Assembly: GCA_044892525.1 (NCBI GenBank) | Contig: CM097886.1 | Location: forward strand, 115,320,001 to 115,384,000 | Direction: 5' to 3' | DNA from: Schmidtea polychroa | Lineage: Eukaryota | Length of the DNA stretch: 64,000 nucleotides | Part shown: positions 52,062-54,296 of the stretch, piece after piece | How the letters are laid out: the number at the start of each line of letters is the position of its first letter | Numbering within the stretch: the stretch's first letter is position 1 | The notes under the pieces: model-generated | The model's database searches: none | Told to the model about the DNA's origin: nothing | The model's input: only the letters and a program-made list of their open reading frames with translations | Translations under genes and position numbers: made by a program

Positions 52062-54296
52062 GGAATTTGTCTGTCTCAATATTCCCATCATTACTAACAA
52101 CATCATCATCCAACTGGTAAATCCACCTGTTCCCCGTGGATTACTCGAAATGTTTTCCGTTAGTATTTCCTCATTTAACTCGTATTTTCCTTTTGTCTCT
52201 TTTATCTCCCAAAACTTGTGTTCGGTCATCCATGTTCCGAAATTCACTTCTATAATATTAGTCAACCTATCTAAGGCTGCTTGAATTCCTGACTGATCAT
52301 CTTTAAGTATCATTAAGGCATTTTTAAACATTAAGGTTAAAATCGTTATCATTTTCCCTTTCGTCATTCCTTCATTTAGGAATTGTTCTGCCACTTCGAA
52401 CATTTCTTGTTCCGTGGTATTTCCTGGGATCTTTCCCATTGTTTTCTTTATCTTTTCAGTGATTTTCTCAACGTTTATATCTTTATCTTTCTTGATTTGC
52501 CATTCAGGCTTAATCAATCGTAATATCTGATTTAATTTCCTCCATGTTTCTGTTTTACTACTGGCGTCTCCAACGCTTTTATCTATTTGGCTAGCTATTC
52601 CTGCTAATGCCTGTCTAGTAACATTTTGCATAGTTACTGGCCTTAGGAGTTCTCTTGGAGGCGGGTTCATTTGACTCTTTCTCGGTCTCCCTCTCCTCTC
52701 CTTCTTTCTCCTATTTTCGACCAACTTCGGGCCCACCCTATCCCTTGGTGGCTCCAATAATTGCGAGGTACTTGCTCCAATGTTTATCTCATTCTGGTTT
52801 AGTTGTATGATTTTATCTTCTTCTGGTGGAAATATCTCGATCAACTCATCCTCTGTGTTATCGAGTTCCTTTAAATATCTATCTATCTCTTCATCGAGAT
52901 CTACAGTCTTTGCTGGCTCTAGATGAGTATTATCATCTACTTGTTTCTGCTCGAGAGGAACTGTCTCCTCCTCAATTTCTGCATTATCCGGCAATCTCAA
53001 AGTTGCCCACTGATCCTTTGGAAACTCTATAAACAATATCATTACTATTGTTTCCTCTTGGGGAAAACATCCCACATCTACTAGAAATTCGTCGTCATCC
53101 ACCTGACAACCATGTATCATTATAAGGAATGATTCTTTTACTATTTCTGATATCCTTTTTCTCAGTTTCTTTACTCTATGATAACATGAGAATTGTTGTA
53201 TCAGGTGTCCTCTCCTGGGTATCCTGATATCTAACATCACTGGACCTTGTCTACCTTCCGATTGTCTGATAGCATGTCCATTTTTAATCAACAGCATCTT
53301 CGCTTGTGTCTGAAATTGTGATGTCTCTTTTACTAAAGGCACCACCAATGGCATTATCTCTCTAAGAGTATCTACTGGGATTCGCAACTCCAGTATCCAA
53401 TCCATTATCATCTTAATGGCCTCCCCATCTCTTGGGTTTTTCATCAGCTCGATTCCCAATCTATGTGGTACGGCTGATATTTGATTTAATTGATCAATTT
53501 CAATCTCGCTTATTGTAAGGACATTATCCAAGTCCACTACTGTAACAGTTTCCTTGTGAAACTTTGCTTTTATCACCATATTTTTCCCTGGTAGTATACC
53601 ACAATCTAACAGGGTTTCTCCCTCTAATAATCTTTCTCCCAATAAATATAGTTTGCATCTCAATTGAGGTTTTACCACAGAAACTCTCTTTGCCAATGCT
53701 TCTACTTTTTCACTTGGGTTAATTGTATATCTACGAAAACAACCCTTTGGGAAAGATACAAAAATTGTAGAATCTTCCAGATTCTCTCTTTGTTTCCAAT
53801 TTAGGCCAATATTTCTCAGAATTTCTCTCAATTCTGGATGATATTCCTCATTTCGGTCTAACTCTGATATGATATCCATTACTTTGTCAACCTCATTCTC
53901 ATTAACGGGGTTTAAACGAATATTTTCTAATTTCTGTCTCATTTCCCTTTGCCATACGCTCTTGCGTAATAATACTTTTCTACAGTCATCGATGGGATTT
54001 CTTTCCTCTTTTGATGCTTCTCTAACCTTTATTGGTTCATTACCACACTCACCTCGCATGGATGATGTGGCTATAAGAACTTCCGGCTCACTGACCGAAG
54101 CCCATCTTTTTTCCAAAACTTCTGTTGGAACAATTTCATTAGCTACTGGATCCATGTCCATAGCATTACGATTTTTAACTGGTGAAACCGGTAAACCTTC
54201 TATTTCTCTGTTGGCTTCTGGCTCCATGGCCACAGCCACTAGATTTTTCCTGGGTGAAACCTGTAAACCCTCACAGACCTCTGGTTCCATGACCAT
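50727..54296 (-). CDS. Accessory polyprotein: 2 UBL domains, AT-hook, Bcl-2-like domain, signal/TM, env ectodomain
   Basis: 1189 aa. UBL1 53562-53768, UBL2 53028-53243, RRGRPRK 52677-52706, BH3/BH1/BH2-like 52197-52631, hydrophobic segment 52062-52124. Confidence 0.85.
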   Translation of the reverse strand: MVMEPEVCEGLQVSPRKNLVAVAMEPEANREIEGLPVSPVKNRNAMDMDPVANEIVPTEVLEKRWASVSEPEVLIATSSMRGECGNEPIKVREASKEERNPIDDCRKVLLRKSVWQREMRQKLENIRLNPVNENEVDKVMDIISELDRNEEYHPELREILRNIGLNWKQRENLEDSTIFVSFPKGCFRRYTINPSEKVEALAKRVSVVKPQLRCKLYLLGERLLEGETLLDCGILPGKNMVIKAKFHKETVTVVDLDNVLTISEIEIDQLNQISAVPHRLGIELMKNPRDGEAIKMIMDWILELRIPVDTLREIMPLVVPLVKETSQFQTQAKMLLIKNGHAIRQSEGRQGPVMLDIRIPRRGHLIQQFSCYHRVKKLRKRISEIVKESFLIMIHGCQVDDDEFLVDVGCFPQEETIVMILFIEFPKDQWATLRLPDNAEIEEETVPLEQKQVDDNTHLEPAKTVDLDEEIDRYLKELDNTEDELIEIFPPEEDKIIQLNQNEINIGASTSQLLEPPRDRVGPKLVENRRKKERRGRPRKSQMNPPPRELLRPVTMQNVTRQALAGIASQIDKSVGDASSKTETWRKLNQILRLIKPEWQIKKDKDINVEKITEKIKKTMGKIPGNTTEQEMFEVAEQFLNEGMTKGKMITILTLMFKNALMILKDDQSGIQAALDRLTNIIEVNFGTWMTEHKFWEIKETKGKYELNEEILTENISSNPRGTGGFTSWMMMLLVMMGILRQTNSLTAYDCSEPILSRIYSLVDTVECKEAYPDKVAKREDVEFYVYQQTEFYRTRIRECRIQRATFEYYCGSNSYSAFLGAKLIPVPLIIPPEDCINAFRSKTVKIDDEVTITAEEGKILGITITRGEPIADDGSCQGRKKLRGSNVVSYVVTVEDYTVELIEYKGTFEVSTGKMMSHPECNAKFGYCKTSLAVLTYQSMRDFCDLGYLKKVVFSRLDGKSFMSQDTKQSGWGDKMAHKTKKEEVPEKNTAVVLVSKDPTDAIQLVRKKQTTKCGVLTFETNYKGIYLAHKYVPAAESLHLSDIKITKYINNKIDFLYHDLQKQLLDVYQEVILNDCRLNREIIRNRLAISIANLDLVMPMLTEEGTFGRILGEAIYSYQCKAVEVEVTRYDQCTVELPVRYKGKLRFMMPVSHQLLKEDTSPLKTVCNPAMSPLYKINNIWISLPDR

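Follow-up and report, generated by a model that had tools for sequence, protein, structure and literature searches.

The closest described systems to the locus reported here are the giant gypsy-like Burro/GYPSM1 elements of planarians, credited to Jurka 2007 and Grohme et al. 2018 and covered in the review PMC6431247. In the passages of that review devoted to Burro, MATH is followed by a Ubi2/SUMO-like motif, then by BCL-2, and an in-frame env separates BCL-2 from protease; they name one ubiquitin-like domain (UBL), found by HHpred, give it no helical partner, and call the role of the cargo worth confirming experimentally (PMC6431247). Burro elements are transcribed upon knock-down of the PIWI-interacting RNA pathway, according to an excerpt of PMC8532177. 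Here we analyse a 64,000-nucleotide stretch of the Schmidtea polychroa genome (assembly GCA_044892525.1, contig CM097886.1, positions 115,320,001 to 115,384,000; "the window"), which contains a Ty3/gypsy element of about 15 kb (about 15.2 kb) in GAG-ENV-POL order. An initial annotation of the window, made by a model from the letters alone, had described two UBLs inside a retroelement polyprotein and presented this cargo as new; in the latter respect it was preceded by the UBL published for Burro between MATH and BCL-2 (PMC6431247, Burro passages).

Both peptides that had been likened to ubiquitin lie where they had been placed, in a minus-strand frame of 1,202 codons (50727-54335; Table 1), and both units are predicted to adopt a beta-grasp fold. 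The first unit, UBL1, matches the Pfam ubiquitin family (PF00240) with E 0.0038 and 17.4 bits, below the gathering cut-off of 25.4 bits, and a Pfam scan of the full 1202-residue frame returned no ubiquitin match for it. Its AlphaFold model, built from five sequences, has beta-beta-alpha-beta-beta topology with a predicted local distance difference test (pLDDT) score of about 63-84. Foldseek ranks a ubiquitin variant first for this model (target template-modelling score 0.78, root-mean-square deviation (rmsd) 2.0, E 1.8e-4), and VIA gave Z 9.5 with rmsd 2.8 over 77 residues. As a single sequence the second unit, UBL2, has no match in the ubiquitin families of Pfam, weak Pfam ubiquitin matches occur in four of 20 family members (best E 2.4e-4), and a prediction from five aligned sequences left it unfolded (pLDDT under 50). 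A second model was made from a 20-sequence alignment in which ubiquitin is not among the rows. It has a mean pLDDT of 87 and a predicted template-modelling score (pTM) of 0.81, with pLDDT 92-97 in UBL2; Foldseek matches are NEDD8, ISG15 and SUMO, from E 1.4e-4, and VIA gave Z 11.9 to ISG15 (rmsd 1.7 over 74 residues). The 20-sequence profile finds ISG15 at E 7.3e-5, and UBLs make up most of its 58 PDB matches. By prediction, UBL1 and UBL2 are real ubiquitin-fold domains, with better support for the second than for the first. The initial annotation had held that the second unit fits the ubiquitin pattern less closely, and had named the lack of a predicted beta-grasp fold, especially in that unit, as the result that would speak against it; instead, UBL2 is the better supported and the more widespread of the two, and both have beta-grasp predictions. 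Of the checks it proposed, structure prediction favoured both units, the Pfam ubiquitin model detected UBL1 below the cut-off and missed UBL2 alone, and the comparison with host UBLs yielded no nearest relative.

Neither UBL closes with Gly-Gly, as had been noted initially, and neither qualifies as a type I (conjugatable) modifier; in copy L021 the first Gly-Gly past residue 500 lies at 1189, C-terminal of a Bcl-2-like domain. Because they lack Gly-Gly, the UBLs should be neither conjugatable nor cleavable by deubiquitinases, so that the earlier reading of integral, non-conjugatable UBLs was correct, and they are most simply understood as binding modules. The search for a host donor returned, as the best PF00240 matches in the genome, true ubiquitins and a BEL/Pao family. 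In that family (L054-L058, G000) two near-true ubiquitins, both ended by Gly-Gly unlike the UBLs of the Ty3/gypsy element, stand in frame ahead of a Gag that is DUF1759 in the four loci scanned, and upstream of them lie varied host-gene fragments (DSPc in L055; Ras and Cpn60 in L058). The BEL/Pao di-ubiquitin is an independent, deubiquitinase-cleavable capture of ubiquitin in the same genome.

In the 781-Mb genome (G000) the UBL block has 1,195 candidate matches, of which 150 were scored; these fall into two identity classes, 66-100% (80 matches) and 44-48% (70 matches). Eleven of the 150 sit in single open frames of 3,513-3,516 codons, and open frames of family 2 reach 3,369 codons. Because unbroken copies have such single frames, Gag, cargo, Env and Pol are parts of one polyprotein. 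Each UBL is preceded, in the models, by three helices, and families 1 and 2 as well as the unnamed proteins P0005 and P0012 have two such modules each, while family 3 (L040-L048), P0006, P0011 and P0016 have one, matching unit 2. The module is retained in these three families, in a giant element described below and in unnamed proteins P0004-6, P0011, P0012, P0016 and P0021; the reverse transcriptase (RT) regions of the families that keep it are 42-74% identical, and in all families examined the modules directly follow the zinc knuckles. When 1.8 billion proteins were searched with the five-sequence alignment, 29 matched: unit 1 was covered by three polyubiquitin-like proteins and unit 2 by many unnamed proteins of retroelement type, and a few matches were due to chance. 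Of two word-index protein searches, one returned nothing and the other P0012 alone, which is weak evidence in either direction. As a separate observation, the window frame 50727-54335 and L021 are close at synonymous sites in the UBL block (distance about 0.1-0.17), far apart from the linker through the Bcl-2-like domain to Env (0.7-1.2) and closer again in RT and RNase H (about 0.28). Because of this jump after UBL2 and the later drop, the subfamilies look recombinant, with a putative breakpoint right after UBL2.

The pair of units arose by tandem duplication of a single module (three helices plus UBL, about 140 residues), because the profiles of unit 1 and unit 2 align across both parts: hhalign gives 98.2% over 130 columns, helices included, and 96.5% over 123 columns when P0005 and P0012 are left out. 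The unit tree supports one origin for unit 1 of families 1 and 2 together with P0001 (97/91); two of its 15 branches are starred, long branches meet, and it gives no date for other duplications. The three-helix part matched no known family in Pfam scans of 20 members, in Atlas or in a comparison with TFIIS-N. Atlas gave no usable match for the helices, and both modules returned only leads below 0.9, mostly ubiquitin clusters. A TFIIS-N (TND) identity had weak backing from one hhalign against four host domains, which covered 57 columns at a probability of 4% and whose score of 16.5 exceeded all 60 column shuffles, and was unsupported with 12 host PF08711 domains, where the probability was 0.86% and the best match fell in the helical segment in three of 14 proteins, with negligible scores. 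A BAG domain was rejected: it appeared in one VIA row (AtBAG1, Z 8.5, rmsd 11.6), with reversed order and short helices. In families 1 and 2 a [VM][ND]xD motif stands at matching borders (after the knuckles, between the modules and after module 2) and is counted six and five times, compared with shuffle means of 1.7 and 1.5 (5 and 9 of 500 shuffles as high). The pattern was picked after inspecting the sequences, it also occurs inside UBL2, and in family 3 it is not enriched (188 of 500 shuffles as high); as a possible protease site at module borders it is a lead only.

Both UBLs are under purifying selection, with pairwise ratios of non-synonymous to synonymous substitution (dN/dS) of 0-0.29 within the three families. 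Between the window and L021 (family 1), UBL1 has dN/dS 0.03 (8 synonymous and 1 non-synonymous, p 3.5e-5) and UBL2 0.29 (p 0.008). In family 2, UBL2 shows 11 synonymous and 0 non-synonymous changes in one pair (p 6e-8) and 2 and 0 in another, and UBL1 has ratios of 0.29 and 0.21 (p 0.08 and 0.05); the single UBL of family 3 has 0.16. The Bcl-2-like domain lies at 0.12-0.26 throughout, and for the first helical domain the family 2 pairs (0.69 and 0.81) give no significant sign of constraint. Comparisons of the window with family 2 are largely saturated, and the module 1 ratios are higher there (0.54-0.64).

Following UBL2, the polyprotein continues with a linker, a Bcl-2-like domain, a hydrophobic segment and Env. 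The initial annotation had correctly located the UBLs and overlooked the three-helix domains, the Bcl-2-like domain, Env and the stops in the window copy. The 8-sequence profile of the Bcl-2-like domain matches BOK (E 2.6e-4), and of the 60 PDB matches listed, 59 belong to the Bcl-2 family; Pfam Bcl-2 scores stay under the cut-off (E 0.006 in L021, about 2e-5 to 9e-5 in family 3), and the model has low confidence (pLDDT about 42-59). The hydrophobic segment, which precedes the start of Env in all six polyproteins examined, is likely the Env signal sequence and possibly also a tail anchor of the Bcl-2-like domain. The linker, acidic and then basic, carries a GRP motif that we take to be AT-hook-like. 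It is found in the window copy, in family 2 and in P0006, P0011, P0012 and P0017, and no pattern match was found in L040, L044, L071 or P0016, which leaves family 3 and the giant element without a match. Beyond the element, clustered Bcl-2-like frames of 208-218 codons (C1, near 153 Mb) were considered as a domesticated gene and rejected, the two fetched (L049, L050) being broken element copies. Dozens of dispersed short Bcl-2-like frames in G000, outside polyproteins (for example L052 and L053) and many with one internal TAG, are possibly another mobile Bcl-2.

The same genome holds a giant MATH-bearing element with the layout of Burro1, that is, Gag, MATH, Env, Pol and ankyrin followed by TRAF-like and BIR frames. 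The module profile matches it twice, with scores of 10.8 before MATH and 17.2 after, whereas none of 202 control sequences, reversed or window-shuffled, scored above 3.2; behind the second module homologue comes a Bcl-2-like match. In a tree of eight RT-RNase H rows, with midpoint root and thin sampling, families 1-3 and the giant element are joined at 100/100 against two other gypsy rows. Because of the profile matches to an element of Burro1 layout and this grouping, the UBL of the window is likely a homologue of the published Burro motif. The downstream TRAF-like frame of the giant element (zf-TRAF plus MATH) lies at L072:7853-9289, with a BIR match at the L072/L073 border; in a search for BIR, matches occupy all 150 scored places (at least 150), mostly in frames of 392-393 codons.

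Table 1. Features of the element and its second copy, in window coordinates
Feature	Position	Strand	Basis or remark
UBL1, predicted beta-grasp, no Gly-Gly	53547..53777	-	Pfam, AlphaFold, Foldseek, VIA
UBL2, predicted beta-grasp, no Gly-Gly	53019..53246	-	Profile, model, Foldseek, VIA; conserved acidic DDDE(Y/F)L motif
Three-helix domain, module 1	53793..53996	-	Helices 14-41, 46-59 and 63-81 of model; pLDDT about 70-80 from residue 31
Three-helix domain, module 2	53262..53435	-	Helices 6-21, 26-40 and 47-63; predicted packing on UBL2, pTM 0.81
AT-hook/nuclear localisation signal-like GRP motif	52680..52697	-	In linker, acidic then basic
Bcl-2-like domain, degenerate BH1	52191..52640	-	8-sequence profile
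Hydrophobic segment	52056..52121	-	Precedes Env start in 6/6 polyproteins examined
Class III (Monjiviricetes/gB-type) Env	50199..52055	-	PF24664, E 2.6e-48 and 1.2e-21
Gag with CCHC zinc knuckles	54390..55676	-	zf-CCHC, E 1.9e-9
Protease, reverse transcriptase, RNase H, integrase (Ty3/gypsy order)	46266..49682	-	Pfam scan
Two frames 3' of integrase	43477..46374	-	One with ISG20/ISG20L2-like exonuclease domain at 43801-44400
5' long terminal repeat (TG...CA)	55752..56793	-	96.4% identity to 41626-42628 over 1028 columns
3' long terminal repeat	41626..42628	-	End masked by N run; purine tract precedes
Primer-binding site	55731..55748	-	Adjoins 5' long terminal repeat
Second copy of element	23782..38286	+	In inverted duplication; frameshift inside UBL block

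What the modules do for the element can be read in several ways. Our tentative preference, to which we give a little less than an even chance, is that the UBLs act as integral, non-conjugatable adaptors for host proteins that recognise ubiquitin or signal cell death, carried as cargo of a Burro-related Ty3/gypsy element. We rank this host adaptor role first because UBL2 mostly keeps the hydrophobic residues equivalent to Ile44 and Val70 of ubiquitin (hydrophobic in 17 of 20 rows, and Leu, Ile or Val in 16 of 19, in a register set by hand with eight of the 20 rows being near-copies from three families) and because the block co-occurs with Bcl-2, MATH/TRAF and BIR. Judged by topology, the hydrophobic segment would thread Env into the endoplasmic reticulum and leave Gag, modules and Bcl-2-like domain on its cytosolic face, where the cargo block (UBL-UBL-Bcl-2-like) would be produced in a one-to-one ratio with Gag. 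Once cut, the Env signal segment could stay behind as a tail anchor of the Bcl-2-like domain in the style of host Bcl-2 proteins, and the element's protease may free the modules. UBL2 might then bind through its Ile44/Val70-like face and help the producing cell to survive or the precursor to stay stable; UBL1 may be a later duplicate with an altered surface and a probably different partner. Several observations pull the other way. The Leu8-like position of UBL2 is variable across the 20 rows, and its best-conserved residues, acidic DDDE-Y/F-L and basic K-V-K-K, appear to map near ubiquitin residues 22-27 and 51-58, off the Ile44 patch, where they may only position the helical domain. UBL1 lacks the patch, with Tyr in place of Ile44 and Lys in place of Val70 in both family 1 and family 2, yet is as strongly selected in family 1, and selection shows that the element uses the UBLs, not for what. 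Finally, BH1 of the Bcl-2-like domain is without the NWGR arginine, so that anti-apoptotic activity is not assured. Of the decoy or adaptor role proposed initially, the link to death signalling has gained circumstantial support from the Bcl-2-like neighbour and from MATH/TRAF and BIR in the giant relative, while docking on the proteasome or p97 stays conjectural.

The acidity of UBL2's best-conserved surface, together with the position of the modules right behind the zinc knuckles, would also fit a role inside the element, with the modules binding its own basic nucleocapsid or RNA, or aiding folding or assembly of a membrane-spanning polyprotein. The nsp3 Ubl1-N complex offers a precedent (PMC8769549, in excerpt). 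Gag and Env of other gypsy elements, however, function without such modules, and the company that the modules keep, Bcl-2 and in the giant element MATH and BIR, points to host signalling; at perhaps one chance in four, we regard such a scaffold or chaperone as rather unlikely. A built-in degron, by which a UBL delivers the precursor or freed cargo to the proteasome and balances the products of a single frame, would suit the one open frame of about 3,500 codons without frameshift in unbroken copies, the hydrophobic patch kept in UBL2 and the adjoining acidic low-complexity sequence, a UBL with an unstructured tail being a known design; it leaves both the obligatory three-helix partner and the duplication with altered surface unexplained, and we hold it to be improbable. 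Marginally less probable still is a nuclear role, in which the modules, once cleaved, would work with the acidic stretch and the AT-hook-like motif either to activate the long terminal repeat (LTR) or to hold Gag or the integration complex on chromatin. The GRP motif, kept in the window copy, in family 2 and in four relatives without names, and the alignment of the helices with four host TFIIS-N domains speak for it; the drop in probability with 12 such domains, the lack of a motif match in family 3 and the giant element, and the membrane segment at the end of the cargo block speak against it. That the units are functionless passengers, or resemble ubiquitin by chance, might be suggested by single-sequence Pfam scores under the cut-off and by the stops in the window copy, but is contradicted by the confident predicted folds (the module 2 model and Z 11.9 for UBL2), by dN/dS well under 1 in three families and by retention across families with such divergent RT regions, and is highly improbable.

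The host adaptor reading has a more far-reaching form, which we think possible yet unlikely: an ancient and hitherto undefined domain of three helices plus UBL, common to planarian GAG-ENV-POL elements, and a Bcl-2 domain tail-anchored through the Env signal sequence would form a virus-style kit against cell death and ubiquitin signalling in the host. Produced in equal number with Gag, the kit would be retained by entire compact families beyond Burro, and the duplication would have given one lineage two binding faces. If true, such retroelements would actively promote the survival of stem or gut cells of their host. Accessory domains that manipulate the host are a familiar feature of large viruses but a rarity among LTR retrotransposons. 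Burro1 reportedly has an anti-apoptotic role, which our literature search did not confirm and which could reduce the novelty further. The compact family narrows the conserved core to the helical-UBL and Bcl-2-like domains, about 150 residues each and expressible and testable alone, which makes the open question of the Burro cargo role tractable.

With LTRs, a primer-binding site, Gag and a class III Env ahead of protease, RT, RNase H and integrase, the element belongs to the Ty3/gypsy GAG-ENV-POL errantiviruses. Its primer-binding site, presumably of the tRNA-Trp type, occurs as an 18-mer 941 times in G000 (reversed control: 0). The window copy is broken by in-frame stops at 54390, 54351 and 54336 (after Gag) and at 50727 within Env, which by its PF24664 match forms the C-terminal part of the 50727-54335 frame and continues past that stop. 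A Pfam scan of the window found no MATH, BIR or ankyrin in the element's own frames. The domain at 43801-44400 matches ISG20L2 by profile at E 8e-8 and has apparently lost its first acidic motif; this accessory frame after integrase is kept in families 1-3, with copies at 34934-36415, 903-2366 and 4942-5934. Element and flanking gene pieces lie in an inverted duplication (18692-38286 and 41626-61883, 99.6% identity), either a recent segmental duplication or an assembly artefact, and between its arms a 334-codon minus-strand frame (39836-40840) resembles by eye a fragment of a protein-primed DNA polymerase, with no Pfam match. An intronless plus-strand frame at 10147-12009 encodes host NPL4, a p97 cofactor, with a C-terminal zinc finger (Pfam E 3e-90); its closeness to the element is probably chance.

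In gene order, class III (herpes simplex virus/gB-type) Env and multiple copies the element resembles Smed_errantivirus_1-6, with Smed_errantivirus_4 Env the closest of the six by eye only, and none of the six is identical to family 1 or 2 (PMC13524379, in part). In the main text of that survey the words "ubiquitin" and "Bcl" do not occur, its supplements having been searched for taxon names only (PMC13524379). Our literature search found no paper combining retrotransposon, ubiquitin-like domain, polyprotein, gag, captured and LTR, and neither the duplicated helical-UBL module, its occurrence in compact relatives nor evidence on its fold and selection; the supplements of Grohme et al. 2018 (Burro-2 to -4) may cover the family or module. 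Beta-grasp domains without Gly-Gly are shared with the integral (type II) UBLs of Rad23, Dsk2/ubiquilin, parkin, BAG1, UHRF1 and OASL, whose structural matches are tied (Z about 8-12, 11-24% identity, none standing out), and because no match exceeds the rest a donor cannot be named. BAG1 has the reverse of the element's order of helices then UBL, and no FPR loop, which we take to mark UBX-type domains, was seen in the element's UBLs. By analogy, with no homology claimed, the coronavirus nsp3 Ubl1 and Ubl2 are also UBLs without Gly-Gly in a membrane-spanning viral polyprotein, Ubl1 forming a complex with nucleoprotein N (PMC8769549, in excerpt).

The nearest comparison remains Burro, which shares Gag with CCHC knuckles, UBL, BCL-2 and an env in frame between gag and pol (PMC6431247, Burro passages). 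The element is not a new kind of system: its UBL-BCL2-env cargo is already known from Burro, and what we did not find described is the variant seen here, a helical-UBL module duplicated within a compact family. Whereas Burro exceeds 30 kb, encodes 4,873 amino acids and carries MATH, BIR and ankyrin cargo, the compact element is about 15 kb long, with a frame of about 3,500 codons, has none of these three and, unlike Burro, bears two modules in direct tandem.

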